A DNA stretch of 64,000 nt from an uncultured Verrucomicrobiae bacterium (GCA_963791565.1 CAWBSX010000004.1:372601-436600); one strand, 5' to 3'; counted from the stretch's first letter, positions 13,504 to 41,862 are shown. Made by a program: numbers and translations. The notes: generated by a model from the sequence alone, not told the origin.

Positions 13504-13535
13504 GTTTCGGTGTCTCGCCGAAACGAACTTTTTTT
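13504..13535 (+). terminator. Candidate rho-independent terminator after paralog 1
   Basis: Stem GTTTCGG (13504-13510) pairs with CCGAAAC (13518-13524). After 4 nt there is a T7 run (13529-13535). Confidence 0.45.
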
Positions 13536-13575
13536 CGAGCAAAGTCCACATCGCCTAAGGAGAGGAGAAACTTCG

Positions 13576-15987
13576 ATGAATAATTTTCGCTACGCACTTC
13601 GCCAGTTGCGTAAGTCGCCCGGGTTCACTTTTGTCGCTGTACTAACGCTTGCGCTCGGCATCGGCGCGAACACCGCGATCTTCACTGTCGTTCACGCAGT
13701 TTTGCTTTCACCGCTGCCGTTCCCCGACGCCGATCGCATCGTCGCGGTGCAATCGCGCAACCTGCAGGAGAATCTCAAAGGGCTGGGCTTCGCGCCCGCC
13801 GGATTCCGCGATGTCGAGAAACAGGTCACCTCTTTCGAGGCCATCGCGGCTTATCGCTATAACTACGACAATCTCACGCGCGTGGAGAAACCAACTTCGG
13901 TCAGCGGAAGTCTTGTCACGCAAGATTACTTTCGCGTGCTCGGCGAGAAGGCGCTGATCGGGCGCACTTTCACGCCCGAAGACGCCGCGGCCAACGCAAA
14001 ACCGACCGTTCTTCTGAGCTATGATTTCTGGCAGAAACAATTCGGCGGCCGGCGCGATCTCGTCGGCCAAACGGTCACGCTCGATGACGTTCCGCACGAG
14101 GTCATCGGCGTCATGCCGCGCACTTTCAAAGATCCATTTGGCATCGCCGCCGAGTGGCGACTCTTTCCGAACGAAGGCGGCGAGAACTTCGTCGCCAATG
14201 CGCGTTTCTGGGCCGTCATCGGACACATGAAAGCTGACGTACCAATGTCCACTGTTCAGGCCGAGCTCGGTACAATCAGCGCGCGACTCGCGCAGAGCGA
14301 TGCGAAATTCTACAAAGGCTGGGACATCAATCTGAGTCCGTTGCGCGATCAGGTCGTCGGAAATTATCGCGAAGGTTTACTGCTGGTGGTGGGCGCCGCG
14401 CTGGTCGTGTTGCTTATCACCTGCGCCAATGTCGCGGGTCTGCAATTTGTTCGCGCCTCGACACGACAACGCGAAGTCGCGATTCGACTCGCTCTTGGCG
14501 CGAGTCGCGGGGCGGTCGCGCGCGGACATCTGATCGAATCGCTGTTGCTCGTCGCGGTCGGTGGACTCGGGGGTGTGTTGCTCGCGAGTTGGGGATTGGA
14601 TGTGCTTCTCGCGAGCCTGGCGCGCGATTGGATTCCGCGCAGCGATGAAATCGCGCTCAACACGACGGTGCTTTTGGTCACCGGCGTGACCGCATTAGTA
14701 ACCGGAATTCTCTTCGGACTTTTCCCCGCATGGCACGCCACGCGCATCGACGCGATCGATTCGTTGCGCGACGGCGGCAAAGGGGGCTCGGCCGGTCTGC
14801 AATCGGTGCGACTGCGCGGCGCGCTCGTCATCGCACAAATCGCGCTCACGCTCGTGCTGCTGGTTTGCGCGGGACTGGTCTGGAAGAGTTTCGCCGCGAT
14901 CACGCGCGTGAATCCCGGGATTCAAATCGAGAACACGCTCAGCATGGTCATCACGCTCGCGCCCACGCAATACGACACGGGTCCCAAACGCATCGACTAT
15001 TTTCGTCAGCTTCTCGAACGCACAAGTGTGATTCCGGGAGTGGAATCAGTCGCGTTCACTCAGACGATGCCGTTCACGTGGGGAATCCCGGCGACGTTTT
15101 CTGTTTACGGCTCTTCGAACGACGAAAACAAATTGCCACCGGCCATCTACGATTCCGTTAGTCCATCGTATTTTTCGACGATGCACATTCCGCTGCTGGC
15201 TGGCCGGGTATTTGCGGAAACCGACAACGCGCAATCGCCCGGTGTGATCATGATCAGCCAATCAACGGCGAAGAAATTTTTCCCGAATGAAGATCCGATT
15301 GGAAAGCGTCTGATTCTTCCGCCGGGCCGTCAGCAACCGAATCCCGTGCCGCTCGAAATCATCGGCGTGGTCGGCGATGTGCCGCGCGATGGACTCAACG
15401 CCGACACGCCATACCAGGTCTACGCGAGTTTGAATCAGCGTGCGTGGGCCTTCGCCACATTGCTTGTGCGCTCGCCGCTTCCAGTCGAAACACTCACGCA
15501 GACAGTTCAGCGCGCGATCTGGGCCTTCAATCCGGAGCAGACAATTTCCAACGTCGCGCCGGTGCGCACGCTGGTGAAACAAAGCCTGACGCAGCCGCAA
15601 CTTTATCTCACGCTCTTCAGTCTCTTCGCGCTCCTCGCATTGCTGCTCGCCAGCATCGGTCTTTACGGGCTCATCGCTTACAGCGTCGCGCAGCGCACGC
15701 GCGAATTCGGCATTCGCTTCGCACTCGGCGCGCAGATTGGCGATGTGCTGCGACTCGTTCTCGGACAAGGCGCGCGGCTGACCGCGCTTGGCCTTGTCCT
15801 TGGTTTGCTGGGCGCGGCGGGAGTCGCGCGTCTCATGCAAACACTTCTCTTTCATACCGCCGCTTACGACCCGCTGGTCTTCGGCGGTGTTGTGTTAGTA
15901 CTCGCGGTCATCGGCCTTCTCGCCGCGTTGTTGCCAGCGTTGCGCGCGACCAAGGCCGACCCAGTCGCCGCTCTCCGCACCGAATAG
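13576..15987 (+). CDS. ADOP-type orphan ABC permease, paralog 2
   Basis: Start at [38 protein letters not shown], preceded by AAGGAGAGGAG. About 803 aa with the same architecture as paralog 1. Confidence 0.9.
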
Positions 15988-15997
15988 GAACGCCAAC

Positions 15998-18430
15998 ATG
16001 AACACACTGCTTCAAGATTTTCGTTACGCACTGCGCAAGCTCGTGCAGCAGCCCGCCTACACCATCATCGCCGTGCTCACGCTCGCGCTCGGCATCGGCG
16101 CGAACACTGCGATCTTCAGTGTGGTCAACGCGGTGCTTTTACGCCCGCTGCCTTATCCGGAACCTGATCGCATCGTTTATCTCAGCGAAGTAAACGGCGG
16201 GACGAACAGCGCGATCGCATTTCCGGATTACATCGATTGGCGCAACGATGCGAAATCGTTCGAGCATCTCGCACTCTCGCGCACGGAATCGCGAAACCTC
16301 AGCGGCATTGCCGGTCGTGAACCGGAGCGCGTCTCGGTCTCGTTCGTCACTGCGAACTTCTTTCGCGTGATCGGCCTCAATCCACAAATCGGCCGCACCT
16401 TTACGGACGACGAAGACAAGCCGGGCGCGCCGGCGCTGGTCGTGCTGAGCGATCGTTTGTGGGACCGCGTCTTCAATCGCGACCCAAACATCATCGGTCG
16501 CGCGGTGACGTTTCACGGTCAGCCGTTCACGGTCACGGGCGTGATGCCGCGGGAAATGGATTCGCCGCATGGCGTGGACGCGTGGTTCTCGGTGATGCGA
16601 CGGAGCGCAAACGCCGCCTGGCAGAATCGCGCCAATCATCCAATGCTCTTCGCCTGGGGCCGGCTGAAGAAAGGTATCACGGTCGAGCAGGCGCGAAGCG
16701 AGATAAAAACCATCGCGGCGCGATTGGAAAAAACTTACCCGGAAACGAACGCGGGCACGAGCGGCGAAGTAAAACCGCTGCTCGATAACTTGTTAGGCAA
16801 CTACCGCACAAGTCTCACGCTGTTGCTTTGCGCGGTCGCGCTCGTCCTCCTCATCGCTTGCGCGAATCTCGCCAATCTTTTCGCCGCGCGCGGTGCTTCG
16901 CGTTCGCGTGAGTTTGCCATTCGCGCCGCTATTGGTGCATCGCGCTTAGGAGTCGTTAGGCAATTGCTCATTGAAAGTTTTTGTATCGCGCTGATCGGCG
17001 GCGCGCTCGGTTTGCTCTTTGCCATTTGGGGACGCGACGCTCTTGTCGCCTTCGCGCCGGGTAATGCGCCGCGCTTCGAAGGCATCGGCTTCGATGCGCG
17101 CGTGCTCGGTTTCACTTTTCTGCTGGCCAGCCTGACGACAATTCTTTTCGGCCTCTGGCCCGCATGGCAGGTCGCGCACGCCGACATTCAAACCGCACTT
17201 CAAGCCGGTTCATTCGGTAGTTCCGAAACAAAAACAGCGCGGCGTAGTCGCGATTGGCTGGTCATCGCCGAAGTCGCGCTCACACTTTTGTTGCTCAGCG
17301 CCGCCGGTCTTGTTTTGAAGAGCTTCGCCAAGATGCAATCGGTCGCGCTCGGTTTCGAGCCGCGCGGACTTCTCACCGCGCGCATCGATTTGCCCTACAC
17401 GAAATACACCGATCACGAAAAGGTCGCGAACTTCGACAACGCATTGCTCGACGGCGTGCGGCGCTTGCCCGGCGTGCAAAACGCAGCCGTTGGCGCGAAT
17501 CCTCCGATGCTGAGCGGATGGCAGCTGAATTTTTTACCCGAAGGCGCGCCGCCGACTGATCCGAGCCAGCAGCCATCCGCCGATTCGGAAGTGATCGCGG
17601 GTGATTACTTCGCTGCGCTGCAAACAACATTGATCCGCGGCCGCACCTTCAACGCCGGCGACACCAAAGATTCGCCGCCGGTCGTGATCATCGATCAAAC
17701 GTTGGCCGAGACAGCTTTCCCGAAACAGGATCCGTTAGGCAAACGTCTCGCCATCGGTGGTGCCGACGGGAACAGCGAGGACATCATTCTCTATGAAATC
17801 GTCGGCGTGGTCGCGCACATGAAACTGCGCGGATACGACGACGTGCCAGCGATACCGGCATTCTTTTTTGCCGAAACGCAAACGGCGCGAACGAATCAGG
17901 TATTACTCGTTAGGGCGAGCGGCAATGTGAAGTCGCTCGAGAGATCGATTCGCGAAGTCATCAATCGCGTCGATCCAACACAGCCGGTTTTCGACTTCCG
18001 CGCCATGGAAGAACGCGTGGCCGAAACCTGGTCGACGCAACGTCTGCTTTCATTTCTTCTCGCGATTTTTGCGGGTCTCGCGTTGCTCCTCGCCGCAGTC
18101 GGCTTGTATGGCGTGCTTTCTTACACTGCATTGCGACGCTTACGCGAAATGGCGGTGCGCATCGCATTCGGCGCGCGACCTGCGGACATCCGCGGTTTGG
18201 TTTTCGGTCACGGCTTCCGTTTGTTCGGCGTAGGAATCGCGCTCGGCGCAATCGGCGTTGCTGGCTCTGCGCCCGTCATCCGCAGTTTTCTTTTCGGGGT
18301 CGCAACCGCTGATCTGCAGATTTTTGCCGCTGTCGGTATTCTGCTCTCGTTAGTCACCGTGCTCGCCGCGTGGTTACCCGCGCAACGCGCCTGCCGCGTG
18401 AATCCGATCATTGCGCTGCGCGCAGAATAA
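15998..18430 (+). CDS. ADOP-type orphan ABC permease, paralog 3
   Basis: 810 aa. [42 protein letters not shown] ... [19 protein letters not shown]. Confidence 0.9.
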
Positions 18431-18448
18431 TTCGCCTAACGAGTCCTA

Positions 18449-20863
18449 ATGGAAACAACCCTTCGCGACATTCGCTATGGCTTGCGCACCCTGCGCAAAA
18501 ATCTCGGCTTCACCGCGGTGGCGGTGGTCGCCCTCATGCTCGGAATCGCGAGCACGACCGTCATCTTCAGCGTGATCAATGGCGTCCTGCTCCGCCCGCT
18601 GCCTTATCCGGACGCGGATCGGATCGTCACCATCTCGCAGACCATCGCCGCTTCGAATATTGCGCGCGGAGCGACAGCGCCGGCGAATTACGTCGATCTG
18701 GCGGCGCAGTCCGATGCCTTCGTCGCCATGGCTGCGTCGCGTGGCTGGCAGGGAAATCTCACCGAGGGCGACATGCCCGAACGTCTGCGCGTGACCATGA
18801 CGACGACGAACTTGTTTCAAGTTTTTGCGAGCGCGCCGATCCTCGGTCGCGGTTTGCAAGCGGCGGATGAACAGCCCGGTCGTTCGAATGTCGCCGTGCT
18901 TAGTCAGGGTTTGTGGGAACGGAAATTCGGGAGCGATCGCAACATCATCGGTCGCGAAATTCGTTTCGATGGCGAACCGCGCACCATCGTTGGCGTGATG
19001 CCGGCCAGTTTTTCACCGGATGATTACGGCGAACTTTGGGTGCCATCGCCTTTCGGTGTGCCAACGCATGCCTTGCGGCCGACGCAAGACCCGCGCCGAA
19101 TGCGCGACAGCAATTATCTCGATGTTTATGCGCGTCTGAAACCGGGCGTGACTTTGCAGCAGGCGCAAACGCAGTTGAGCGCGGTCATGGCGCGTTTGGA
19201 AAAAGATTACCCCGACGACAACATGGGCGAAGGCGTCGCCGTTACGCCGTTGCAGGAAGACAAAGCGGGCAGCATGCGGCCAGCGCTGCTCATGCTGGGC
19301 GCGGCGGTTGGATTTCTTCTTCTGATCGGTTGCGCGAACGTGGCGAACCTGCAGCTGGCGCGCGCGGCAGCGCGGTCACGCGAAGTTTCCATTCGCGCCG
19401 CGCTGGGCGCGGATCGCTCACGACTCGTTAGGCAACTTCTGACCGAAAGTATTTTGCTCGCGCTGATTGGCGGCGCGCTGGGAATTCTGGTCGCGGCCTG
19501 GGCCGTGCCGGTTTTGATGGCGATGGCGCCGCCCGCCTTGACAAGCTTCAAGGAAATTACACTCGATCGCGGCGTGCTCTTGTTCAGCCTGATCATTTCA
19601 TTACTAACTGGCGTGCTCTTCGGGCTGGCACCGGCTTTTCAAGCCTCATCGGCGAATCCGAACGACTCGTTAGGCGAAGGCGAACGCGGCAGCACGGCCA
19701 GTCACAGCCGCAGCCGGTCCGTTCTGATCGCGACGGAAGTTGGACTAACACTGGTCCTGCTCATCGGCGCGGGATTGCTCATCAGAAGTTTCGGGAAGGT
19801 CACCAAAGTCGATCCCGGTTTCACGCCGGAGAACTTACTTGTCTTTGACGTCGGCCTTCCGCCCGCGACGGACGACGCGCACAATCTCGCCTTTTATCAG
19901 CAGGTGGTGGAACGCGTGCAGGCTGTTCCCGGTGTGATGCGCGTCGGCGCGGTCAGCCGGTTGCCGTTCTCCGGCGGTAACAGCGGCCGCTCCTTCAATC
20001 TTCCCGGCAGCGACAAAAACTACGACGCCGACATTCGCGTGAGCACGCCGGATTATTTTCGCACGATGAACATTCCGCTTTTGCGCGGACGCGTCTTTAC
20101 TGAACAGGACACGAAAGATTCTGTGCGCGTTTGTGTGATCAACGACGCCACCGCGCGGATGGCGTTTCCCGGCGAAGATCCGGTCGGCAAATTCGTCGTC
20201 AATTTCGGACCGGACAGCGAGAAGCTGCAGATCATCGGCGTGGTCGGAAACATCCGGCATCTCGCGCTCGACACCGCGCCGCATCCGGAACTCTATCAAC
20301 CACTCGGCCAGGCAAAATGGCCGCGCATGTTCATCGCAATGCGAAGCGCCGTGGGAAATTCGCTCGCGTTATTACCGGCCGCGCAGAACGCGGTCTGGAG
20401 CGTCGATCGCAACGTCGCGCTCGGTAATGTACGCACGATGGAAGACACGATCGCGCGGACGTTGTTGAAGCGAAAATTCACCATGACGCTGCTGACAATT
20501 TTCGCCGGCATCGCCGTCGCGCTCGCCTCGATCGGTTTGTATGGTGTGATGTCGTATTCCGTTTCGCAACGCACGCGTGAGATCGGAATTCGCATGGCGC
20601 TCGGTGCGCAACGTGCGGATGTGCTGCGACTGGTCGTTAGGCAAGGGATGTTACTAACCGCGATTGGCGTCGGGCTTGGGCTGGCCGGTTCGCTTGGCCT
20701 AACGAGACTTATCTCGAGTTTGCTCTTTGGTATCAGCGCGACGGATGTCAGTACCTTCGGCGCGGTTTCGATTTTGCTGCTCGCGATCGCGTTACTGGCC
20801 TGCTGGCTGCCGGCGCGGCGCGCGAGTGGCGTCGATCCGATGGTGGCGCTACGAGCGGAGTAA
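18449..20863 (+). CDS. ADOP-type orphan ABC permease, paralog 4
   Basis: 804 aa. METTLRDIRYGLRTLRKNLGFTAVAVVALMLGIASTTVIFSV ... [19 protein letters not shown]. Confidence 0.9.
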   Translation: METTLRDIRYGLRTLRKNLGFTAVAVVALMLGIASTTVIFSVINGVLLRPLPYPDADRIVTISQTIAASNIARGATAPANYVDLAAQSDAFVAMAASRGWQGNLTEGDMPERLRVTMTTTNLFQVFASAPILGRGLQAADEQPGRSNVAVLSQGLWERKFGSDRNIIGREIRFDGEPRTIVGVMPASFSPDDYGELWVPSPFGVPTHALRPTQDPRRMRDSNYLDVYARLKPGVTLQQAQTQLSAVMARLEKDYPDDNMGEGVAVTPLQEDKAGSMRPALLMLGAAVGFLLLIGCANVANLQLARAAARSREVSIRAALGADRSRLVRQLLTESILLALIGGALGILVAAWAVPVLMAMAPPALTSFKEITLDRGVLLFSLIISLLTGVLFGLAPAFQASSANPNDSLGEGERGSTASHSRSRSVLIATEVGLTLVLLIGAGLLIRSFGKVTKVDPGFTPENLLVFDVGLPPATDDAHNLAFYQQVVERVQAVPGVMRVGAVSRLPFSGGNSGRSFNLPGSDKNYDADIRVSTPDYFRTMNIPLLRGRVFTEQDTKDSVRVCVINDATARMAFPGEDPVGKFVVNFGPDSEKLQIIGVVGNIRHLALDTAPHPELYQPLGQAKWPRMFIAMRSAVGNSLALLPAAQNAVWSVDRNVALGNVRTMEDTIARTLLKRKFTMTLLTIFAGIAVALASIGLYGVMSYSVSQRTREIGIRMALGAQRADVLRLVVRQGMLLTAIGVGLGLAGSLGLTRLISSLLFGISATDVSTFGAVSILLLAIALLACWLPARRASGVDPMVALRAE

Positions 20864-20965: not shown

Positions 20966-20971
20966 ATCTGC

Positions 20972-21424
20972 CTAACGAGTCAGTTGTAAACGCCAGTTGA
21001 GCTTGCCGTCGGCGGCGATGTCGAGATAAGCGACGCTGGCCGGCGCGCCACGATTCGGCCGCGTCACGCATCCGGGATTAAGGAATAAGACATCGTGAAC
21101 ACGCTCGTACCGCGGTACGTGCGTGTGACCATGCAGAACGACGTCGACATTTTTCGGCGAGTCGTCAGGCGGAATATGAACAAGGCGAAAGCAGAGTCCG
21201 TTTCGTTTCAGAAGAACAACGAGAGGCCACTCGGTCTCACTGTCGCAATTTCCCCGGACAAGCGTCAGCGGCGGCCCGGCAGCGCGAATTTCCTCAAGCA
21301 AGCTCGGCGCGCAGACATCGCCGAGATGCCAGATTTCATCCACGTCGTCGGCCAATCGATTGAAGTTCGGCGGCAGATGATTGTGCGTGTCGGCCATGAC
21401 CAGGACGCGAATCGATTTTCCCAT
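20972..21424 (-). CDS. Metallophosphoesterase (YfcE/MJ0936-like)
   Basis: 150 aa with MADTHNH, GDVC, GNCD and HGHTH motifs. The stop is the TAG of the motif copy at 20970. Confidence 0.85.
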   Translation of the reverse strand: MGKSIRVLVMADTHNHLPPNFNRLADDVDEIWHLGDVCAPSLLEEIRAAGPPLTLVRGNCDSETEWPLVVLLKRNGLCFRLVHIPPDDSPKNVDVVLHGHTHVPRYERVHDVLFLNPGCVTRPNRGAPASVAYLDIAADGKLNWRLQLTR

Positions 21425-25032: not shown

Positions 25033-25488
25033 GTGTACCCGCCGAAACTCGATAAGATCATCCATCTCTTCGAAACGCTGCCGGAAGTGGAGCGGCGTGA
25101 GACGCTCGTTTCCTATGCCGACGGCGCGAAGAAGCAGGAACCGCGGCCTAACGAGAAGTTCGATCTCGAAGATATCCGCAAAGATGAGGAATGCGCCGAT
25201 ACCGTCGGCGTTTATTTACAGGTCGATGACGAAGGCAAAGCGCACTTCCGGATGTCGCTCGGACCGGAAGTGCAAACGCTGACACGCGCGATGACCTCGA
25301 TTCTTTGCAAAGGCCTCGACGGCGCGACGCCGCAGGAAGTTCTCGATCTGCCGAGCGATTTCGTTACGCGCATTGTCGGCGCCGAACTCGTGCGCGTGCG
25401 CAGCCAAACGACTTACTACATTCTCACCCGCATGAAGGGCATCTGTAAGGTTTATCTTGATCGGCAGCGCAAGATGGCCGCGGCTTAA
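25033..25488 (+). CDS. SufE-like sulfur-acceptor protein
   Basis: 151 aa with a GTG start. The SufE-family call rests on general sequence resemblance that I did not verify by search, and on genomic context next to the sulfurtransferases. Confidence 0.55.
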   Translation: MYPPKLDKIIHLFETLPEVERRETLVSYADGAKKQEPRPNEKFDLEDIRKDEECADTVGVYLQVDDEGKAHFRMSLGPEVQTLTRAMTSILCKGLDGATPQEVLDLPSDFVTRIVGAELVRVRSQTTYYILTRMKGICKVYLDRQRKMAAA

Positions 25489-25539: not shown

Positions 25540-28500
25540 ATGCCGCGGAACAACGAGCTGCGAAAAATTCTCCTCATCGGCTCCGGCCCGATCGTGATCG
25601 GGCAGGGCTGCGAGTTCGATTATTCCGGCGTGCAGGCCTGCAAGGCTTTGCAGGAAGAGGGCTACGAGGTCGTGCTGGTGAACTCGAACCCGGCTACCAT
25701 CATGACCGATCCGGAATTCGCGGACCGCACTTACATCGAGCCGATCACGCCGGAAGTGATCGAAGCGATTCTCGAGCGCGAAAAGCCGGACGCGATTCTG
25801 CCAACAATGGGCGGCCAAACCGCGCTCAACGCCGCGATGGAATTGAATCGCAACGGCGCGCTCGCTAGGCACGGCGTGAAATTGATCGGCGCGAACGCGC
25901 AGGCCATCGCGAAAGGCGAAGATCGCCAGCTTTTCAAGGAAGCGATGTTGCGCATCGGTCTCGACGTTCCGCGCTCCGGCATCGCGCACAATCGCTCGCC
26001 GATGCGAACCGCGTCGCGGACACGATCGGAACTTTTCCGCTCATCATTCGACCCGCTTTCACGCTCGGCGGCACCGGCGGCGGCATCGCCTACAATCGCG
26101 AAGAGCTCGAGGAAATCGCCGAGCGCGGGCTCGCGCTTTCGCCGGTCACGCGAAGTCTTGATCGAGGAGTCGCTCGTCGGCTGGAAGGAATTCGAGATGG
26201 AAGTGATGCGCGACCACGCCGACAACTGCGTAGTCGTTTGCTCGATCGAAAACTTCGATCCGATGGGCGTGCACACCGGCGACTCGATCACTGTCGCGCC
26301 GGCGCAAACGCTGACCGATCGCGAATATCAATTGATGCGCGACGCGTCGTTCGCCGTGATTCGCGAGATCGGCGTGGAGACCGGCGGATCGAACATTCAG
26401 TTCGCCGTCAATCCGGACAACGGCCGCATGGTGGTGATCGAAATGAATCCGCGCGTCTCGCGTTCGAGCGCGCTCGCTTCGAAAGCCACCGGATTTCCCA
26501 TCGCGAAAATCGCCGCCAAACTCGCGGTCGGCTACACGCTCGACGAAATCAAGAACGACATCACGCGCGAAACGCCGGCGAGCTTCGAGCCAACGATCGA
26601 CTACTGCGTGGTCAAAGTTCCGCGCTTCACTTTCGAAAAATTTCCGCACGCCGACCCGACTCTAACGACGCAGATGAAGAGCGTCGGCGAAGCGATGGCG
26701 ATCGGCCGCACTTTCAAGGAGGCGCTGCAAAAAGCGCTGCGTTCACTCGAGATCAAGCGCTTCGGTCTGTGCGGCGACGGCGAAGGAAAAGCGCGTCGAT
26801 CCCGAAACATTGCGTCTCAAGCTCGCCATTCCGAATGCCGAGCGCATTTTCCATCTCGCGCAGGCGTTCCAGGACGGCATGCGATCGACGACGTCTTCGA
26901 GCTGACGAAAATCGACCGCTGGTTCCTGCACAATGTCGAGCAGATCGTGTAGGGCAGAACTGCACAGCTGGCAATCGATCGACTTGCGCCGAGCGAAGAA
27001 GCTCGGATTTTCCGATCGGCAACTGGCGATCGCGCACGGAACTTGAAAGAACAGACGATTCGCGCAACGGCGGAAAGCAGCAGAAAGTCATCCCCACTTA
27101 CCGACTGGTCGATACCTGCGCGGCGGAGTTCGAAGCGTTCACGCCGTATTACTATTCCACCTACGGGATCGAGAACGAGATGCGCCGCGACGCGAACGGC
27201 GCAAGATCATGATTCTCGGCGGCGGGCCGAATCGCATCGGGCAGGGAATTGAATTCGATTACTGCTGCGTGCACGCGGCTTTCGCGCTGCGCGAACTCGG
27301 ATTCGAAACCATCATGGTGAACTCGAATCCGGAAACGGTTTCGACCGATTACGACACGAGCGACAAACTCTATTTCGAGCCGCTCACGCTCGAAGACGTG
27401 CTCAATATTTACGATCAGGAAAAGCCGGAAGGTGTGATCGTGCAGTTCGGCGGACAAACGCCGCTGAATCTCGCGGCCGGTTTGCGCGCGGCCGGCGTTC
27501 CGATTCTCGGGACGCAACCGGAGAGCATCGAGATGGCGGAAGACCGCAAGCTTTTCGCCGCGATGCTGGACAAGCTCGGTTTGCGGCAAACGCCGAGCGG
27601 ATCGGCGGTGAGCGCCGACGGAAGCGATAGCGATCGCGGAACGAATCGGTTATCCAGTGCTCGTTAGGCCGTCGTTCGTCCTGGGCGGTCGCGCGATGGA
27701 ACTGGTTTACAACGACGACAGATCTCGAGCGTTACATGCAGAGCGCGATCGAGGTCAGCTCGGATCGGCCGGTCTTGGTCGATCGGTTTCTCGAAGACGC
27801 GATCGAGGTCGACGTCGATTGCATCGCTGATGGTGAGACTAGCCGTGATCGGCGCGATCATGGAGCACGTCGCAGCTCGCCGGCATTCATAGCGGGGACA
27901 GCGCCTGCGCCATCCCGACTTTTTCGCTCTCGACAAAACGTGCTCGACGGAAATCTCGCGCGCGACGAAGGCGATGGCGCGCGAGCTCGAACGTGCGCGG
28001 GCTGATGAATGTGCAATTCGCGGTGAAAGGCGACGACGTCTACGTGCTCGAAGTGAATCCGCGCGCCTCGCGCACCGCGCCGTTTGTCAGCAAAGCGATC
28101 GGCGTTCCGTTCGCAAAACTCGCCGCCAAAGTGATGACGGGAAAGACGTTGAGCGAACTCGGCTTCACCAAAGAAATTATTCCGAAACATTTTTCGGTGA
28201 AGGAACCGGTCTTTCCTTTCCTGCGTTATCAAGGAAGCGACACTGCGCCTGGGCCCGGAAATGAAATCTACCGGCGAAGTGATGGGCATCGATGCCGATC
28301 TCGGTCTTGCTTACGCCAAGGCGCAGATGGCCGCGCCGCCGCCCTGCCGAAGATCAGGAAATGTTTTCATCAGCGTGAAAGATTCGGACAAGGAAAGCGT
28401 CGTGCCATTGGCGCGTGATTACATCGCGCTCGGTTTCGGGATTATCGCGACCAGCGGAACGGCGGCGATGTTGGCCGCGGTCGGAATTCCAGTGCACCAG

Positions 28501-29598: not shown

Positions 29599-30483
29599 AT
29601 GTCGGAGGCGAGCACCAACGTCGCATTGGTGCAGATGCAATGCGGGACGGATCCCGCGGCGAATCTGGAAAAGGCGATCGGGTTCATCCGCGATGCGGCG
29701 AAGAGCGGCGCGCAGATAATCTGTCTGCCGGAGCTTTTTCGATCGCAGTATTTTTGCCAATCGGAAGATCACAAATACTTCGCGCTCGCGGAAGAAATTC
29801 CCGGGCCGACCACGGACTCGTTAGGCAAACTCGCGGGCGAGCTTAAGGTTGTCATCGTCGCGTCGCTTTTCGAAAAGCGCGCTGCCGGCGTTTATCACAA
29901 CACCGCCGCCATCATCGATGCCGATGGGAAATTTCTCGGAAAATATCGCAAGATGCACATCCCGGATGATCCATCGTTTTACGAAAAATTTTATTTCGCG
30001 CCGGGCGACTTGGGCTTCAAAAACTGGCCCACACAACGTGGGAATATTGGTGTCTGTGTTTGCTGGGACCAATGGTATCCGGAGGCAGCCCGCCTGACGG
30101 CATTGCGCGGTGCGCAGTTACTTTTTTATCCGACTGCGATCGGATGGCATCCTTCTGAGAAGGAAAAGTATGGTCGCGCGCAATATTCCGCTTGGGAAAC
30201 AATGCAACGCAGTCACGCCATTTCGAATGGTTGTTTCGTCGCAGCCGTGAATCGCGTCGGTTTCGAAAATCCCGCGGGCGGCGACGGCATCGAATTCTGG
30301 GGACAAAGTTTCATGGTCGCGCCGAGCGGCGAAATTCTCGCGAAAGGCAGCGTTGATCGCGAAGAAATCATCCTGGCCGACGTGGATTGGAAACGCGTCG
30401 ATGAACACCGCACGCATTGGCCATTCCTGCGCGATCGTCGCATCGACGCCTACGCAGGCCTCGAGCGGCGGATGATCGACTGA
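29599..30483 (+). CDS. Carbon-nitrogen hydrolase (N-carbamoylputrescine amidase-like)
   Basis: 294 aa with catalytic-Cys context GVCVCWDQWYPE, plus PELF and YRKMHIPD. Confidence 0.85.
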   Translation: MSEASTNVALVQMQCGTDPAANLEKAIGFIRDAAKSGAQIICLPELFRSQYFCQSEDHKYFALAEEIPGPTTDSLGKLAGELKVVIVASLFEKRAAGVYHNTAAIIDADGKFLGKYRKMHIPDDPSFYEKFYFAPGDLGFKNWPTQRGNIGVCVCWDQWYPEAARLTALRGAQLLFYPTAIGWHPSEKEKYGRAQYSAWETMQRSHAISNGCFVAAVNRVGFENPAGGDGIEFWGQSFMVAPSGEILAKGSVDREEIILADVDWKRVDEHRTHWPFLRDRRIDAYAGLERRMID

Positions 30484-30509
30484 ACATTCAAGCGGGTGTA
30501 GCGTACCGC

Positions 30510-31058
30510 ATGAAAATCAGCTCCTTCGTTTTTCTTTTCGCGCTCGTTGTTGGTATGAGTGCGCCGTTTGCGGTTGCGCAGGATGTGCAACAAGCAGTCG
30601 CCGTAGTTCAACCGACCGCCAACAGCAAAGTCACCGGCACGATCACGTTCACGAAATCAGCCGATGGTGTGAAAGTTGTCGGCGACATTAATGGCCTCAC
30701 ACCGGGCAAACATGGTTTCCATATCCACGAATTCGGTGATTGCTCTGCGCCCGACGCCACCTCGGCTGGCTCTCATTTCAATCCGAGCAAACACCAACAC
30801 GGTGCGCCGGATGCGAGCGATCGTCATGACGGCGACATGGGAAACATCGAAGCCGATGCTTCCGGCAAAGCACATGTCGATTACACAGATAAAATGATGA
30901 AACTGAGCGGCGCTGATTCCATCATCGGTCATGCGGTGATCGTGCACGAAAAAGCCGATGATTTGAAAACGCAGCCGACCGGCGATGCCGGCGGTCGTCT
31001 GGCGTGCGGTGTAATCGGAGTGGCAAACCCTAACATGTCTCTGCATAGCACTCGTTAG
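30510..31058 (+). CDS. sodC: Periplasmic Cu/Zn superoxide dismutase
   Basis: Start at MKISSFVFLFALVV. It has GFHIHEFGDC and GDAGGRLACGVIG. The stop is the TAG of the motif copy at 31051. Confidence 0.9.
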   Translation: MKISSFVFLFALVVGMSAPFAVAQDVQQAVAVVQPTANSKVTGTITFTKSADGVKVVGDINGLTPGKHGFHIHEFGDCSAPDATSAGSHFNPSKHQHGAPDASDRHDGDMGNIEADASGKAHVDYTDKMMKLSGADSIIGHAVIVHEKADDLKTQPTGDAGGRLACGVIGVANPNMSLHSTR

Positions 31059-31348
31059 GCGCCACTCAGACACCCCTGAACGCCGCTGTTCCGTAACTGT
31101 CTAATATCGCAGTTCTTTGTTAGTGCTGAGCGGATCCGCCTGGGGCGGATTCGACGGGGGACCCAAATTTCGCGCAAGCGATCGGGGCGCATGACGCTGC
31201 GGCGTCAGGAGCACTTGGTGGCTCTAGCCCGACAGCTAACTCCGTAAGCGAAACACCGAGAGCAGGGAGCGATTCCTGAGTCTCAAAAAAAGTTCGCCTT
31301 CCGCAAATAGTGCGAGCGCAAGCCGCAAGGCTTTAGAAGGAGATAGTC

Positions 31349-32653
31349 ATGAATGCCGTCAGGAAACTGGTGGTGTTTGTGGTGCTCGTGTCGGTCGCGA
31401 TTGCGATCGAGCGGGCGTGGTTAGGTGCAGTGCAGCCGCAAATCGCGACGCGGGTCGCGGTCGAGCAGCTCAATGGAAACGACAATGCGTTTCGGCAACT
31501 GCGTTTGTTCGAAGTGTTCAAGGACATCGCGGATGGCGTCGTGGTCATCGCAGCGATCGGACTCGCGTGGTGGCTTGTCGCCAAACCGGCCAGCACGCGG
31601 CGCGATTGGCCACGTTTGATATTGATCGGCGCGTTGCCGCTCCTGGCAATGAGCGGTTGCGTGCGGCCCTTCGACACGCCGGAATATGCGGAGATCAATA
31701 CCTCCGAGACGGGATTCCTTATTCCGCTCGAAGGCGACAGCACCGCGCAGGCAAAATTCCAATCGGAAGAATATCTGCGCGATTTGAAAGTCGCAGCCAA
31801 ACGCGTGCAGATCACGCATCGTTGGTCGCAGGAAGGACGGCTGCCGGGAAACGGCCGCTGGATTCCGACCGTGCGTTTGATCAAAGTGAATCGTTCGCCG
31901 ATCACGCGCGAATGGACAGCGGAAGCTACGACCGGCACGGCGGCGAAGAACCAGGCCATCTGGATCGAGAGCTCCGATAGCGTCGGATTCAGTATGGGAT
32001 TTACCTGCACTGCTTTCATTCCCGAAGAGCAGGCGGCGAAATTCCTGTATTGGTATCCGAGCGGCTCGCTCTCGGAAGTGATGGATGCCGAAGTGCGCGG
32101 CCGTATTCAACAAGTATCGGCTGAGATCGCGGCGAAATATCCGCTCGACGCCTTGCGTGCACGCAAACAGGAAATATCCGACGCGGTGAAGACTGACGTC
32201 ACGCAATTCTTCGCGCAACGCGGTGTTGTGATCACGACCGTCGGAATGTTCGGCGGCATGACCTACGAGAACGGCGAGATCCAGAAGGCGATCGACAACA
32301 CGATCATCGCACAACAGCTCAAAGTGGTGAACGAAGCGAAATGGGAAGCACAACAGCGCGATAACGATCGCGTAACGCTCGAGGCAAACGCAGTAGCGGA
32401 ACGGGCGCGGCGCATTGCCGCTGGCGAAGCGGATGCGAAAAAAATCGCGGCTGATGCCGAAGCACAGTCGATTCGCGAAGTCACGAAAGCTCTCGCGGAC
32501 GCCAAAGAGAATCCGTTGCTCTATCAACTGCGCGCGCTCGAAGTAGAACGCGCCCGAGTCGAACACTGGAACGGTCAATACCCAAGCTGGTTCATGGGCA
32601 CCGCGGCGAGTTCGCCGAATCTGATGCTGCAAATGCCCGCGCCCCCGCGCTAA
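31349..32653 (+). CDS. SPFH/band-7 domain membrane protein
   Basis: 434 aa with AGGAG 7 nt upstream, N-terminal helices, and a coiled Ala/Glu-rich region (AERARRIAAGEADAKKIAADAEAQSIREV) typical of SPFH proteins. Confidence 0.6.
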   Translation: MNAVRKLVVFVVLVSVAIAIERAWLGAVQPQIATRVAVEQLNGNDNAFRQLRLFEVFKDIADGVVVIAAIGLAWWLVAKPASTRRDWPRLILIGALPLLAMSGCVRPFDTPEYAEINTSETGFLIPLEGDSTAQAKFQSEEYLRDLKVAAKRVQITHRWSQEGRLPGNGRWIPTVRLIKVNRSPITREWTAEATTGTAAKNQAIWIESSDSVGFSMGFTCTAFIPEEQAAKFLYWYPSGSLSEVMDAEVRGRIQQVSAEIAAKYPLDALRARKQEISDAVKTDVTQFFAQRGVVITTVGMFGGMTYENGEIQKAIDNTIIAQQLKVVNEAKWEAQQRDNDRVTLEANAVAERARRIAAGEADAKKIAADAEAQSIREVTKALADAKENPLLYQLRALEVERARVEHWNGQYPSWFMGTAASSPNLMLQMPAPPR

Positions 32654-32662
32654 GTTGTCGAT

Positions 32663-33688
32663 GTGGAATTGTTGACCATCGGCGAAATCAGGCGACGCGC
32701 GCAGAACGGTTTCGTTACTGCGCGCGTTCATGTGCAGATCAGTGCGGCAGAAGCGAAGGCAACCCGCGAAGGAAAACCCTACTGCGAAATGACGCTGGCC
32801 GATGCGCGCGATCGCATGACCTTGCGCGTCTGGAGCGATCATCCGGAATATCGCGCCTGCGAAACATTACAAGCTTCCGAGTTCATCGAGATCAGCGGAG
32901 AATTTGCGCAGCACCAGCAATTCGGACTCGAGGCGAAGCAGTGGAACGTTCGTCGCCTAACGAGTGATGAAATCGCCGACCTGCTGGCCGGCCCGCCGGA
33001 GTTGCGCGCGAAACAAACCGCGGACTGGAGTCTGATTACGGAACGAATCAAAACGATCGGCGATCCTCGTCTGCGCGCGTTATGCGAAGCGTTCATCACG
33101 GAATTCGGCGAACGATTTCGCCGTACCGCGGGCGCGCGCAGTTATCATCACGCGCGCCGCGGCGGATTAGTCGAGCACGTCGCGCAGATGTTGCGCACGG
33201 CCGATGCGCTCGCGCCGCTTTATCCGCAATTGAATCTCGATCTCCTCATCGCCGGAATTGTTTTTCACGATTCCGGAAAACTTTGGGAAAACCATCTGCC
33301 GGAAGATGGCTTTACCATGGGTTTCGACGAGCGCGGCGAATTGATGGGGCACATTTCGATCGGGATTGAGCTGGTCAATTCGCTCTGGCGCAAAGTGAAT
33401 TTGCCTAACGAGTGGAATGGCCTGTCGCCCGCGGCTGAAGATGTGCGGCTGCATCTTTTGCATTTGATCGGCGCGCATCATGGCGAGCCGCAATTTGGTT
33501 CGCCGGTTAGTCCGAAAACTCCGGAGGCGATGGCGCTCAACTACATCGACAACCTCGACGCTCGTCTGGAGATGTTCGCCGCGGGATATCTCGTGGCGAA
33601 ACCAATCGCCGATCGAATTTTTGATCGCGTCCGGCCTTTGCCCGGAAATTTGGTCAAGCCACTGGAAAAATTTTCGCCGGCGAACTAA
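32663..33688 (+). CDS. OB-fold plus HD-domain phosphohydrolase (YhaM-like 3'-5' exoribonuclease family)
   Basis: 341 aa. The N-terminus has an OB-like segment (KATREGKPYCEMTLADARDRMTLRVW). The HD domain shows HHARRGGLVEHV and FHDSGK. Confidence 0.65.
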   Translation: MELLTIGEIRRRAQNGFVTARVHVQISAAEAKATREGKPYCEMTLADARDRMTLRVWSDHPEYRACETLQASEFIEISGEFAQHQQFGLEAKQWNVRRLTSDEIADLLAGPPELRAKQTADWSLITERIKTIGDPRLRALCEAFITEFGERFRRTAGARSYHHARRGGLVEHVAQMLRTADALAPLYPQLNLDLLIAGIVFHDSGKLWENHLPEDGFTMGFDERGELMGHISIGIELVNSLWRKVNLPNEWNGLSPAAEDVRLHLLHLIGAHHGEPQFGSPVSPKTPEAMALNYIDNLDARLEMFAAGYLVAKPIADRIFDRVRPLPGNLVKPLEKFSPAN

Positions 33689-34413: not shown

Positions 34414-34468
34414 CCGTCCCGTTTAACTGCTCGTTAGGCGCGAAGAAAGCTCTTTTGTTGGCGTGGCG

Positions 34469-34503: not shown

Positions 34504-34537
34504 TTTTCTGAACATTCTGCCTAACGAATGGTTACAA

Positions 34538-35011
34538 CTACTCGTTAGTCTCTTTCGATTTCTTGCTCTTCGGCGCAGGCTTCGAATCGGCCGCGCTCTT
34601 CTTGGATTTCGCCTTCTTGGTTGTTTCTGCCGTTTCCGGCTCATCGACAACGACTGCGGCATCGACCCATTCAATGAACGCAACCGAAGCAGAGTCGCTC
34701 TTGCGTTGACCGAGCCGGACGATGCGGGTGTAGCCGCCTTTGCGATCAGCCGAGCGCGGAGCGATGTCGTCGAACAGTTTCTTCACCGCATCCGCCTGAC
34801 GCAACGTGGCGAGCGCAGTGCGTCGCGCGTGCAGCGAGCCTTTCTTTCCCAGCGTCACCATTTTTTCCGCGAGCGGGCGAACCGCTTTCGCTTTGGCGAG
34901 CGTCGTCTTGATGCGGTGATGTTCGATCAAGCTGCAAACCTGATTGGCCAGCAGCGCTTTTCGATGCGCGGCGGTCAGGCCGAGCTTCAAGGTTTTCTTC
35001 TGGTGTCTCAT
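34538..35011 (-). CDS. rplQ: 50S ribosomal protein L17
   Basis: 157 aa. MRHQKKTLKLGLTAAHRKALLANQVCSLIEHHRIKTTLAKAKAVRPLAEKMVTLGK, with a Lys-rich tail. Confidence 0.95.
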   Translation of the reverse strand: MRHQKKTLKLGLTAAHRKALLANQVCSLIEHHRIKTTLAKAKAVRPLAEKMVTLGKKGSLHARRTALATLRQADAVKKLFDDIAPRSADRKGGYTRIVRLGQRKSDSASVAFIEWVDAAVVVDEPETAETTKKAKSKKSAADSKPAPKSKKSKETNE

Positions 35012-35031
35012 GATGATTCGCCTAACGAGTG

Positions 35032-36673: not shown

Positions 36674-37450
36674 TTACCAACTCGAGCCCGCCCCGCCGCC
36701 GCCGAAGCTACCACCGCCGCCGCTGAAACCACTAAAGCCTCCGCCGCCTGAGGAACCGCCCGACCAGCCGCCGCCACCACCACCCCACCCGCCGATGAAC
36801 GGTCCGCCCATTCCAGTATAACCCCAACCGCGCCGCTGCGATCGTCGCGCGATCATAATTAGAATGATGAGAAAGATTACAAACGGCAAAAACGGAATGA
36901 CGCCTGTCGCGATCGACCCGCCTTTGTCGTCCGCCACGGTTTTGCCGGTGCCTTTGTATTCGCCGCGAATCGCCTTGCCGATCAGGTCGATGCCAGTGGC
37001 CAGTCCGCCTTCATAATCCGCCGTGCGAAATTTCGGTTTGATGTGGCGCTCGGTAATATCGAAAGCCGTCGCATCCGGGAGCGCGCCTTCCAAACCGTAG
37101 CCGACCTGAATGAACATTTTGCGATCGTCCTTGAAGACGAAAAGCACGGCGCCGTTGCGCCGATCTTTTTGTCCCACGCCCCAGGATTGCGCGATGCGCT
37201 GCGTGTAATCCGCGATGTCCGAATCGGTCTGCATCTTCGGATAAATGGCGACCAACACTTGGTTGGAAGTGTCGCGTTCGAACTGCGCGAGCTGTTCGTT
37301 GAAACGCGCCGCCGCATCTCGGGAAACAACGCCAGCATAGTCGTTGAAATAACGATCCGGCTTCGGCGGCATGACTTCCGCCGCCCGTAGCCTAACGAGT
37401 GCTGCAAAAACGAGCAGCGCAGCGCCGGCGAAATTCCTGATCGGATGCAA
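36674..37450 (-). CDS. TPM-domain membrane protein (YgcG-like) with Gly-rich tail
   Basis: 258 aa with a signal-like N-terminus, DYAGVVS...QVLVAIYP...NGAVLFVFKDDRKMFIQVGYGLEG, a TM helix, and a GGGGGWSGGSSGGGG tail. Confidence 0.75.
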   Translation of the reverse strand: MHPIRNFAGAALLVFAALVRLRAAEVMPPKPDRYFNDYAGVVSRDAAARFNEQLAQFERDTSNQVLVAIYPKMQTDSDIADYTQRIAQSWGVGQKDRRNGAVLFVFKDDRKMFIQVGYGLEGALPDATAFDITERHIKPKFRTADYEGGLATGIDLIGKAIRGEYKGTGKTVADDKGGSIATGVIPFLPFVIFLIILIMIARRSQRRGWGYTGMGGPFIGGWGGGGGGWSGGSSGGGGFSGFSGGGGSFGGGGAGSSW

Positions 37451-41855: not shown

Positions 41856-41862
41856 CGAAATT

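Follow-up and report, generated by a model that had tools for sequence, protein, structure and literature searches.

A frequent non-palindromic DNA word imprints the proteins of an uncultured soil Chthoniobacterales bacterium and resembles an uptake sequence

A conserved peptide of carB in this sequence is encoded by a short DNA word that recurs in many other genes, which raises the question of what maintains the word. The initial annotation had proposed that selection or drive acts on the DNA word itself, and that the encoded proteins carry its imprint. We examined this proposal in the window, by which we mean the whole 64-kb stretch of DNA that was analysed, and in related sequences. The host is an uncultured soil bacterium of the order Chthoniobacterales (Verrucomicrobiota), relatives of Candidatus Udaeobacter that rank among the most abundant soil bacteria.

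The 9-mer CTCGTTAGG occurs in 52 exact copies in the window, 28 on the plus strand and 24 on the minus strand, compared with 0.18 on average and never more than 2 in dinucleotide-preserving shuffles. It is a 5' extension of the core TCGTTAGGC, which has 65 copies in the window and lies in the logo A-S-S-A-C-TCGTTAGGC-V-A; no conservation was found around the copies past about 16 nt. The word ranks first among the 8-, 9- and 10-mers of the window. The 10-mer CTCGTTAGGC has 49 perfect copies, and its one-mismatch copies number 40 versus 4.4 expected, the commonest variants being C-to-T at positions 1 and 3. The density is about one copy per kb over both strands, and the spacing between copies is exponential (CV 0.93). 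A motif-free gap of 5.2 kb over two ADOP paralogues was considered as a foreign island and rejected, because such a gap is expected about once among 51 exponentially spaced gaps, as estimated from the mean gap.

Short length and high copy number would also suit a Chi- or KOPS-like polar signal for recombination or segregation, since these octamers are likewise frequent words kept by selection on DNA. Such signals are strongly skewed to one replication strand, whereas the word has no orientation bias within the 64-kb window (28:24), its orientations are interleaved along the window, and its copies are independent of gene strand (18 sense, 22 antisense). We therefore disfavour this reading and consider it very improbable.

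With respect to genes, 40 of the 52 copies are in-frame within genes, five form the stop codon of a gene and seven are intergenic. The earlier claim that every intragenic copy is read in one of four stop-free frames is true, and it is tautological, since each of the remaining frames has a TAG or TAA. What is not trivial is that these two stop-bearing frames serve as genuine stop codons. These are the TAA of the luciferase-like monooxygenase gene 4680-5759 (-), at 4676-4684 (+) between convergent genes; the TAG of the alpha/beta-hydrolase gene 6634-8022 (+), at 8015-8023 (+); the TAG of gene 20972-21424 (-), at 20971-20979 (-); the TAG of ORF 30417-31058 (+), at 31051-31059 (+), with a c-di-AMP riboswitch 54 nt downstream of the copy; and the TAA of gene 49756-50538 (+), at 50534-50542 (-), directly followed by a one-mismatch copy at 50544.

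The intergenic copies lie 5 nt past the stop of gene 9759-10478 (10483-10491, -), 7 nt before position 10981, where the first ADOP-type permease starts (10966-10974, -), between two tandem permease genes (18435-18443, -), at 34430-34438 (+), where the copy is conserved in the related locus L002, between divergent genes (47040-47048, +) and between convergent genes (62983-62991, -). The copy at 35021-35029 (-) is ambiguous: it is intergenic unless a doubtful ORF that would end there is real. No terminator-like hairpin was found at the copies within the 1-20 kb scanned, where hairpin counts were at chance level, and a promoter scan of the same 20 kb likewise stayed at chance level, with no prediction coinciding with a copy. 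A single inverted pair was seen, made of imperfect copies (34519/34541), and Rfam and tRNA scans had no match at motif copies.

The in-frame copies are spread evenly over the four stop-free frames, with a ratio of 10:8:13:9 for L-V-R, S-L-G, P-N-E and L-T-S/R (chi-square P 0.71). Besides the copy in carB (27660-27668, +), L-V-R is encoded at 1384-1392 (-; QLLVRLK) in the FtsX-type permease gene 1-2004 (-), and in three ADOP-type permeases, at 12721-12729 (+; ESLVRQY) in 10981-13443, at 17906-17914 (+; VLLVRAS, 10th base G) in 15998-18430 and at 19424-19432 (+; SRLVRQL) in 18449-20863. Further copies lie at 37391-37399 (-; AALVRLR) in gene 36674-37450 (-), common to L002, at 50910-50918 (+; ERLVRLQ) in the astacin/beta-helix protein 50691-53375, and at 57765-57773 (+; RGLVRPN) in an amidohydrolase, in a segment that is variable among orthologues. 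The copy at 61483-61491 (+) lies in the ALVRQ of an FAD-oxidase, a peptide present in 109 of 120 homologues and special here in its coding only, and that at 62833-62841 (+) gives EPLVRQV where 63 of 120 homologues have PLVQQ. S-L-G is encoded in the same FtsX-type gene at 644-652 (-; VDVSLGNQ), in the first ADOP-type permease at 12000-12008 (+; LLSLGGG), at 19666-19674 (+; NDSLGEG), a copy common to L001 with near-copies in L002 and L003, and in a C-N hydrolase at 29817-29825 (+; TDSLGKL), where motif-poor relatives have A-L-G, E-L-E or R-L-E. The remaining S-L-G copies are at 41692-41700 (-; QVSLGKN) in ORF 41280-41942 (-), common to L002; at 56137-56145 (+; ELSLGNL) in a methyltransferase gene; at 60693-60701 (+; NHSLGAE) in the FAD-oxidase/Fe-S protein, where orthologues have [ED]TLRA; and at 62169-62177 (+; QNSLGIS), where orthologues have K[TA]LGL.

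P-N-E is encoded at 2886-2894 (+; KSPNELI) in gene 2724-3215 (-), at 5226-5234 (+; AAPNERL) in the luciferase-like monooxygenase gene, at 5771-5779 (+; LSPNETI) in ORF 5672-6016 (-), at 8294-8302 (+; QLPNESK) in the DUF2891 gene 8012-9103 (-) and at 25147-25155 (-; PRPNEKF) in gene 25033-25488. In an HD-domain gene, the copy at 33404-33412 (-; NLPNEWN) stands where other orthologues have a longer variable segment. Additional copies are found at 39752-39760 (+; LLPNEFA) in an ORF on the minus strand, common to L002, at 45772-45780 (+; EKPNESF) in the sulfatase gene 45076-47022 (-), at 52539-52547 (-; DPPNESF) in the astacin/beta-helix protein and at 58704-58712 (-; ASPNESS) in gene 58167-58727 (+). 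The amidohydrolase carries three: 56835-56843 (-; ELPNETL, orthologues LPGTT), 57273-57281 (-; WTPNESS, orthologues GPNGE) and 57882-57890 (-), which encodes its final three residues and is followed by TGA. L-T-S is encoded at 10316-10324 (-; DYLTSRG, 10th base T instead of C) in gene 9759-10478 (+), at 32956-32964 (-; RRLTSDE) in the HD-domain gene, at 46253-46261 (+; RGLTSSS) in the sulfatase gene, at 56527-56535 (-; GRLTSEQ) in the methyltransferase gene and at 63852-63860 (+; CDLTSGK, 10th base T) in the S9 peptidase gene 62996-64000 (-), and a copy common to L002 at 20698-20706 (-; LGLTRLI) gives L-T-R. Three more L-T-S copies (52193-52201, 53018-53026 and 53210-53218, all -) occupy the beta-helix repeat unit NNTIGGLTS of the astacin/beta-helix protein. 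The initial annotation had listed real copies in their correct frames, except that its 56147 is really 56137 and its minus-orientation positions are one base early, which is harmless; its listing lacked 1384, 17906 and 37391 (L-V-R), 644 and 41692 (S-L-G), 57882 (P-N-E), and 10316 and 63852 (L-T-S).

To evaluate the codons, we took the usage of 40 confident genes (16.4k codons), leaving out motif codons. Arginine is written CGC in 54%, CGT in 15%, CGG in 15% and AGG in 2% of cases, and leucine CTC in 32%, CTG in 27%, TTG in 22%, TTA in 5% and CTA in 3%, in agreement with the earlier impression of which arginine and leucine codons prevail. CCT makes up 6% of proline codons. The suggestion that the motif codons are under-used thus holds for AGG, TTA and CTA, which are rare, and does not hold in the same way for GTT, which provides 19% of valine codons and is therefore only mildly under-used. 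Every in-frame reading requires one very rare codon, AGG, TTA, CCT or CTA, and within the 40 genes the motif copies alone hold 30% of all AGG, 19% of all CCT, 15% of all CTA and 7% of all TTA codons.

The tripeptides themselves are written with the motif codons far more often than codon frequencies predict. Motif codons encode 9 of 23 LVR, 8 of 14 SLG, 12 of 18 PNE and 7 of 10 LTS, where codon fractions predict 0.026, 0.12, 0.20 and 0.014, respectively, an excess of 60- to 500-fold (binomial P 1e-13 to about 1e-21). The finding of the initial annotation is therefore not refuted by the codon test that it had set itself. PNE is also 10-fold more frequent than expected from amino-acid composition (18 versus 1.7), and LVR 3-fold (23 versus 7.7). 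This surplus comes mostly from the motif-coded copies: without them SLG and LTS drop to the amino-acid expectation, whereas non-motif LVR (14 versus 7.7) and PNE (6 versus 1.7) still exceed it about 2- to 3.5-fold.

These counts bear on the reading of the word as a side effect of protein repeats or codon bias, or as a mobile-element footprint or terminus. The three copies in paralogous NNTIGGLTS units possibly have one origin and would suit such a reading; there, a motif-less paralogous unit at 52365 has GGA ACC ACC AGC (GTTS) against the GGC CTA ACG AGT of the motif units and is an internal control for motif coding. The word as a whole, however, is written in the rarest codons, contrary to what codon bias would give, and it appears in four frames, on two strands, across unrelated proteins and between genes. 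REP and MITE elements are intergenic, longer than about 20 nt and bear hairpins or terminal repeats, unlike a word that is mostly in-frame within genes, has nothing conserved past 16 nt and arose without length change at 11 of 12 sites compared among orthologues. A scan of viral contigs for the extended word gave 68 single, chance-level matches and one 8-kb contig with 3 to 4 copies; there was no sign of a phage carrier in the viral contigs scanned. Apart from the three repeat-unit copies, the side-effect or mobile-element reading is refuted, and almost no probability attaches to it.

The same 12 sites, each compared in depth with a deep orthologue set, address whether the tripeptides are ancestral or novel. 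Both kinds were found, and most are novel. At two sites an invariant peptide was recoded synonymously (PVLVRPS in carB and ALVRQ in the FAD-oxidase), and at ten there were amino-acid replacements, at variable positions. The word was accommodated by synonymous recoding where the ancestral peptide was already compatible and, more often, by replacements at tolerant positions. A metagenome search with the amidohydrolase, aimed at conspecific strains, had a best match of only 73 to 75% identity, and its loci were used for three orthologue sites. At 25147, the motif outside the window is found in L003 only and is absent from 34 other mapped orthologues, including the closest relatives; 33 of these 34 read x-G-E, and the copy is a recent gain with a G-to-N replacement. 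The 32956 copy is confined to the window, L001 and L002; the remaining orthologues have R-[PAH]-L-[TN]-x.

The carB copy does sit in the conserved LVRP, as had been claimed, and the peptide PVLVRPS is invariant across orthologues. The identical 9-mer occupies this site in 24 of 50 relatives, motif-poor lineages among them; therefore, it offers no evidence of recent drive, and its conservation in word-poor lineages would not be expected from a purely lineage-specific drive. As assembled, carB carries some 17 to 20 single-base insertions that disrupt it, with frameshifts 42 nt upstream and 59 nt downstream of the copy. The copy that opened the question is the weakest and least diagnostic example of the imprint.

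Among close relatives the word is conserved above background and also turns over. In the nearest relative 9 of 13 motif sites (69%) but 32% of control 9-mers are conserved (P 0.006); in the other of the two closest relatives the figures are 5 of 8 and 20% (P 0.01). Gains and losses are seen on both sides of the comparison. The rare codons, the tripeptide excess, the orthologues and this conservation together support the proposal of selection or drive on the DNA word, and we conclude that a DNA-level force almost certainly upholds it and leaves the imprint on the proteome.

Across the order the word is unevenly distributed. At least three clusters of Chthoniobacterales loci have the core TCGTTAGGC at a density of 0.5 to 1.4 per kb; it is scarce in others, and even in the poor lineages it is 12- to 24-fold enriched. 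The base 5' of the core differs among relatives, being C, G or T, so that dialects can be distinguished, and in a sister clade the frequent word is AAGATCGACA(T/A), which is unrelated and reaches 0.7 per kb. An abundant chromosomal protein that binds the word, such as a nucleoid organiser or a protein reading it as a "self" mark in defence or repair, could maintain it by ordinary selection with no role in uptake. Such a binding function predicts the abundance, strand symmetry, conservation and proteome imprint equally well, and an old one fits the order-wide low-level enrichment and the deeply conserved carB copy. However, known architectural sites are rare (tens per genome) or strand-polar, none being known at about one per kb with such specificity; the fast turnover, the dialects and the unrelated sister word would demand repeated co-evolution of a protein with thousands of sites; and no candidate protein was identified. 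We consider this explanation fairly unlikely.

The same sequences also over-represent GCGATCGC (17 versus 1.65 expected) and CGATCG (120 versus 20), and the sister-clade word contains GATC; methylation-linked words may therefore be active in the Chthoniobacterales. The word could accordingly be a by-product of a sequence-specific methyltransferase and very-short-patch-type repair that turns near-matches into matches, a mechanism reportedly discussed for HIP1, the cyanobacterial palindrome GCGATCGC. HIP1 resembles the word in being a hyper-abundant octamer-scale sequence, at up to about one per kb, that sits in genes, shapes codon and peptide usage and is lineage-specific, and its own enrichment is present here as well. 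Unlike HIP1, TCGTTAGGC is not palindromic (its reverse complement is GCCTAACGA), and neither strand holds GATC, CGATCG or another known common methylation site. Its 9 to 11 fully specified bases exceed typical methyltransferase sites, and T:G-correcting repair should deplete C-to-T variants, yet those at positions 1 and 3 are the commonest. On this evidence the methylation account is distinctly improbable.

The remaining reading, and the one we favour, is drive of the kind proposed to maintain uptake sequences. The USS core of Pasteurellaceae is AAGTGCGGT and the DUS of Neisseriaceae is GCCGTCTGAA; in these systems copies are often inverted pairs in terminators, with about half of all copies there. 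Uptake sequences are 9 to 10 nt long, have hundreds to thousands of copies and dialects, and can take up as much as about 2% of a chromosome (bioRxiv 10.1101/2025.10.24.684340). The tripeptides that USS and DUS encode are doubled, and the copies sit where residues are poorly conserved (Findlay and Redfield 2009, PMC2817400). The word shares with them a non-palindromic core of 9 to 10 nt with a few weaker flanking positions, a density near one per kb (some 1 to 1.6% of all DNA) that is equal on both strands, many one-mismatch copies, copies within and between genes, dialects by lineage with gain and loss between close relatives, and over-represented tripeptides mostly at poorly conserved residues. 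The parallel with the USS and DUS protein imprint that the initial annotation drew is thus borne out as a likeness of pattern. By this likeness, a competence system would have a DNA receptor at the cell surface with a preference for fragments that bear the word, homologous recombination of such fragments would spread new copies and restore decayed ones as a molecular drive, and selection would purge copies that damage proteins.

Several observations stand against uptake or set the word apart from the known systems. In the 20 kb scanned, terminator-like hairpins and copies did not coincide, and the single inverted pair is imperfect, unlike in USS and DUS, where inverted terminator pairs are common and not strictly defining. 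The four frames are used equally despite very rare codons, whereas known uptake sequences prefer frames with preferred or cheap codons (PMC2817400). In-frame genic copies make up 77% here versus 35 to 65% in known systems, five copies act as stop codons, and sister lineages have an unrelated word instead of a dialect. No competence or type IV pilus protein, and no word-specific receptor such as a ComP-type minor pilin or ComN, was found among 20 window proteins scanned against Pfam. A ComEC survey makes no mention of the Verrucomicrobia phylum, and literature searches returned nothing relevant on the word itself, on Verrucomicrobia uptake sequences or on Udaeobacter competence. Uptake sequences have been documented so far in only two proteobacterial families (bioRxiv 10.1101/2025.10.24.684340), and here the host is a verrucomicrobial lineage. 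An uptake-sequence mechanism is therefore a tentative assignment that we place somewhat short of an even chance, and the joint statement of a DNA-level force with uptake-type drive is likewise a little below an even chance.

What is new here is a USS/DUS-like word in a phylum where none was known. Uptake sequences are the clearest known bacterial device that limits genetic exchange to a cell's own kind, and a signature with dialects and an unrelated sister word would carry the phenomenon to another phylum and to a dominant soil lineage. The word would give a culture-independent handle on recombination barriers and species boundaries in uncultivable organisms, and it can serve as a marker when these genomes are binned or checked for foreign DNA. 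Whatever the mechanism, the data cleanly show that a force at the level of DNA can prevail over codon preference and alter amino acids across a proteome. We suggest, with doubt outweighing confidence, that Chthoniobacterales use lineage-specific uptake sequences, TCGTTAGGC and its dialects in some lineages and the unrelated AAGATCGACA in the sister clade. If so, this would be the first uptake-sequence system outside the Proteobacteria, and natural transformation in bulk soil would be self-selective, paid for in rare codons and proteome-wide amino-acid replacements.

The 64 kb window contains 52 copies of the word CTCGTTAGG, 28 of them on the plus strand and 24 on the minus strand, against a mean of 0.18 and a maximum of 2 copies in dinucleotide-preserving shuffles. 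In the alignment of the window copies, the flanking bases were A at −4 in 41 of 52, A or T at −1 in 50 and C immediately 3′ of the 9-mer in 49. When the copies of the window and its two closest relatives were pooled (99 copies), the logo read A-S-S-A-C-TCGTTAGGC-V-A, with no conservation past about 16 nt. The core TCGTTAGGC is the top 9-mer of the window (65 copies), and the 10-mer form CTCGTTAGGC was found in 49 perfect and 40 one-mismatch copies, the latter expected only 4.4 times; these variants chiefly replace the first-base C with T or G. Spacing between copies is exponential (CV 0.93, KS P 0.65). A polar signal of the Chi/KOPS type is disfavoured by the balanced orientation. At 34517-34550, two one-mismatch copies lie inverted to each other (GCCTAACGAA ... 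CTCGTTAGTC, with 12 nt separating the 10-mers) and form the sole hairpin-capable pair seen in the window; a tandem pair at 50534-50553, made of a perfect copy and CTTGTTAGGC, lies at the end of the gene at 49756-50538.

Across the whole window, GCGATCGC (17 copies versus 1.65 expected), CGATCG (120 versus 20) and GATC (523 versus 238) show an enrichment like that of HIP1, the cyanobacterial iterated palindrome. This concurrent enrichment lends some colour to the idea that the word is a by-product of a methyltransferase and repair, as discussed for HIP1. However, the word is non-palindromic and shows a mismatch spectrum at odds with such an origin, which we consider unlikely.

Gene calls were obtained from a codon-usage model, and each copy was then checked against ORF structure and translation. 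Forty copies lie in frame inside genes and are read as L-V-R (10), S-L-G (8), P-N-E (13) and L-T-S or L-T-R (9), a frame use indistinguishable from an even split (chi-square P 0.71). The initial annotation held that every intragenic copy is read in one of four stop-free frames. This is forced, because the other two frames hold TAG or TAA, and five copies (4676, 8015, 20971, 31051 and 50534) do use those frames, furnishing the stop codon of a gene. Its coordinates were all right, save 56147, a typing error for 56137, and the in-frame copies that it listed are real, but eight had been overlooked. Seven of the 52 copies are intergenic. Stop-supplying and intergenic copies together (12 of 52) exceed the approximately 11% non-coding fraction of the window (P 0.01), whereas strictly intergenic copies by themselves show no excess over that fraction. 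A c-di-AMP riboswitch (RF00379, 31114-31265 on the plus strand, 53.7 bits versus a threshold of 38) is followed 3′ by an SPFH/Band_7-domain gene (31349-32653) and has a word copy 54 nt upstream. Four tandem paralogues of ADOP-type MacB_PCD/FtsX permeases lie within 10981-20863; a fifth (1-2004), cut by the window start, matched FtsX only. Copies are at non-homologous positions in different permease paralogues, which indicates independent origins.

Codon usage was counted over the 16.4k codons of 40 genes called with confidence, after exclusion of the motif codons. Arginine is encoded by CGC (54%), CGT (15%), CGG (15%) and AGG (2%), and leucine by CTC (32%), CTG (27%), TTG (22%), TTA (5%) and CTA (3%); CCT makes up 6% of proline and GTT 19% of valine codons. 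The earlier impression that AGG, TTA and CTA are rare was thus borne out, although it holds only weakly for GTT, and CCT, which had not been listed, is rare as well. Each of the four in-frame readings needs precisely one very rare codon, and the word copies contain 30% of all AGG, 19% of all CCT, 15% of all CTA and 7% of all TTA codons in these genes. Motif coding was used in 9 of 23 LVR tripeptides (0.026 expected from codon fractions), 8 of 14 SLG (0.12), 12 of 18 PNE (0.20) and 7 of 10 LTS (0.014), so that the claim of motif-forming codons beyond what codon frequencies predict withstood the comparison (P 1e-13 to 2e-21). The totals compare with composition expectations of 7.7 for LVR, 7.9 for SLG, 1.7 for PNE and 5.6 for LTS. 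Without the motif-coded copies, SLG (6 versus 7.9) and LTS (3 versus 5.6) fall to the composition expectation, whereas LVR (14 versus 7.7) and PNE (6 versus 1.7) remain in excess by factors of about 2 and 3.5; part of the residual PNE consists of one-mismatch relics such as CCT AAC GAA and CCG AAC GAG. Motif copies therefore account for most, not all, of the tripeptide excess, and these peptides have entered the proteome through the word. PNE, the frame used most, has the lowest composition expectation of the four, so that peptides already present do not set where copies arise.

Sites were located on orthologues by a tblastn search of the fetched loci, and 120 homologues were aligned for the FAD oxidase. 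The question of whether the tripeptides are ancestral or novel received both answers: two sites have invariant peptides with special coding, and ten have replacements at variable positions. In carB, PVLVRPS (27660) is invariant in 50 of 50 loci, and ALVRQ of the FAD oxidase is present in 109 of the 120 homologues; at both, the coding alone is special. At 25147, other orthologues have x-G-E where the window has P-N-E, and this ancestral state is also found in the two closest relatives, so that the word was gained recently by the window and a third relative, L003. The window likewise has S-L-G in place of A-L-G or E-L-E at 29817, R-R-L-T-S in place of R-[PAH]-L-[TN]-x at 32956, P-N-E in place of a longer variable loop at 33404, LPNET in place of LPGTT at 56835, TPNES in place of GPNGE at 57273, GLVRP within an otherwise variable segment at 57765, HSLGA in place of [ED]TLRA at 60693, NSLGI in place of K[TA]LGL at 62169 and PLVRQ in place of PLVQQ at 62833.

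The astacin/beta-helix protein (50691-53375) encodes G-L-T-S as GGC CTA ACG AGT in three of six repeat units, while a paralogous unit reads GGA ACC ACC AGC (G-T-T-S) and is an internal control for the word coding. These three repeat copies may have a single origin. For every word copy but three, an origin in repeated protein units, biased codon use or the footprint of a mobile element is excluded. The protein has an out-of-pattern tail at its end and is overlapped by an ORF (53215-54675, bacterial TSP3 repeat) that continues in another frame, probably reflecting a frameshift near 53.3 kb (53200-53400).

The carB copy leaves the peptide undisturbed, as originally proposed, since the local frame at 27660 reads through the conserved peptide. 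It is nevertheless a poor witness for drive, because the identical 9-mer is widespread at this site and the gene is interrupted by insertions. CTC GTT AGG, with its rare AGG, encodes the invariant LVR in 24 of 50 relatives, including word-poor lineages and lineages rich in another word, whereas identity at synonymous sites elsewhere has fallen to about 75%. Relative to L001, L002 (the two closest relatives) and L003, carB (25900-28500) carries approximately 17 to 20 uncompensated single-base insertions outside homopolymers, 11 of them within 27-28 kb, whereas neighbouring genes have balanced indels only. The pattern resembles a local error of assembly or consensus, or else a pseudogene.

In the comparison with L002, which shares 86.5% nucleotide identity with the window over 20.4 kb, the word was intact at 9 of 13 window sites, whereas control 9-mers were intact in 31.9% of cases (P 0.006). 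In L001, 5 of 8 window copies and 19.8% of the controls were intact (P 0.01). There are also four copies in L002 and five in L001 that lack an intact window counterpart; one window site, 25861, carries the one-mismatch relic CTCGCTAGG, whereas L001, L002 and L003 have the intact word there. The word is thus better preserved than the sequence around it, even though copies come and go between close relatives.

An exact-match search with a window protein found no entry. The C-N hydrolase of the window was then used to scan one genome of each species and gave 80 loci (best match 94% protein identity), of which 79 have titles naming soil Chthoniobacterales, Verrucomicrobiota, Spartobacteria or Candidatus Udaeobacter MAGs and one (L063) is labelled Alphaproteobacteria. 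Microflora Danica nanopore MAGs are among the relatives, and long contigs of word-rich relatives include CAVULI010000003.1 (1.87 Mb) and JBBRYT010000002.1. Word density varies sharply among them. Twenty core-rich loci, forming at least three clusters in a single-gene tree, have 0.45 to 1.4 copies per kb (297 in 360 kb versus 3 to 5 expected); the remaining 60 have 92 core copies in 924 kb, 12- to 24-fold over expectation. The base 5′ of the core is C in the group of the window and variable elsewhere, being most commonly G in L027 and T in L041 and showing no preference in several other core-rich loci. A sister clade of ten loci (L036, L048, L049, L053, L055, L058, L059, L061, L072 and L076) is instead marked by AAGATCGACA(T/A), a non-palindromic word unrelated to the core, which was counted 101 times in 142 kb, peaks at 1.3 per kb in L058, is oriented 63:38 relative to the locus and does not occur in the 64 kb window. 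Alongside the HIP1-like enrichment, CGCGATCGC ranks with the top 9-mers in L006, L008, L011, L018, L024 and L046. Other locally frequent words are GCGGCTACAG, with 6 to 7 copies per approximately 20 kb in L010 and L016; CTGGAAGCC, with 7 copies in 9.8 kb of L022; and TCTCGTTAG, the main word in a shifted form, in L029 and L055. Among the viral-collection contigs, just one, L176 (IMGVR_UViG_3300000559_000086, 8.2 kb, GC 53%), has several word copies (3 to 4 in 8 kb); it may be a prophage or a misfiled Chthoniobacterales genome fragment.

Overall, the data show that a force acts on the DNA word, overriding codon preference, altering amino acids at tolerant positions and preserving copies. That the word is a selected binding site of an abundant DNA-binding protein seems doubtful. 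Uptake sequences are 9 to 10 nt long, have hundreds to thousands of copies and dialects, and occupy up to about 2% of the chromosome (bioRxiv 10.1101/2025.10.24.684340), a description that fits the word. In the uptake signal sequences (USS) of Pasteurellaceae and the DNA uptake sequences (DUS) of Neisseriaceae, tripeptide frequencies are doubled and copies lie at poorly conserved residues (Findlay and Redfield, PMC2817400); the pattern agrees with this report point for point, in tripeptides and in poorly conserved residues. The initial annotation had drawn a parallel with the USS and DUS imprint on proteins. We therefore tentatively favour, with less than even confidence, a molecular drive of the uptake-sequence type that would maintain the word. 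Our confidence is lowered by the old carB copy in word-poor lineages, by a Pfam scan of 20 window proteins that gave no competence or type IV pilus protein, and by two differences from known uptake sequences: about half of their copies sit in terminators, whereas a 20 kb scan of the window placed no word copy at a terminator-like hairpin and the single inverted pair is imperfect, and the word uses its frames evenly though each needs a rare codon.

Our literature search found no mention of the word, of uptake sequences in Verrucomicrobia or of competence in Udaeobacter. The part consulted of a meadow-soil population study of 19 species including Verrucomicrobia describes recombination as widespread in abundant soil bacteria and reports ComEC loci in them, the ComEC result not being tied there to Verrucomicrobia (PMC7305173); this is compatible background, not evidence. 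Uptake sequences have been reported only from Neisseriaceae and Pasteurellaceae (bioRxiv 10.1101/2025.10.24.684340). What is new here is a hyper-abundant word resembling USS and DUS, with an imprint on the proteome and a putative role in DNA uptake, in another phylum.
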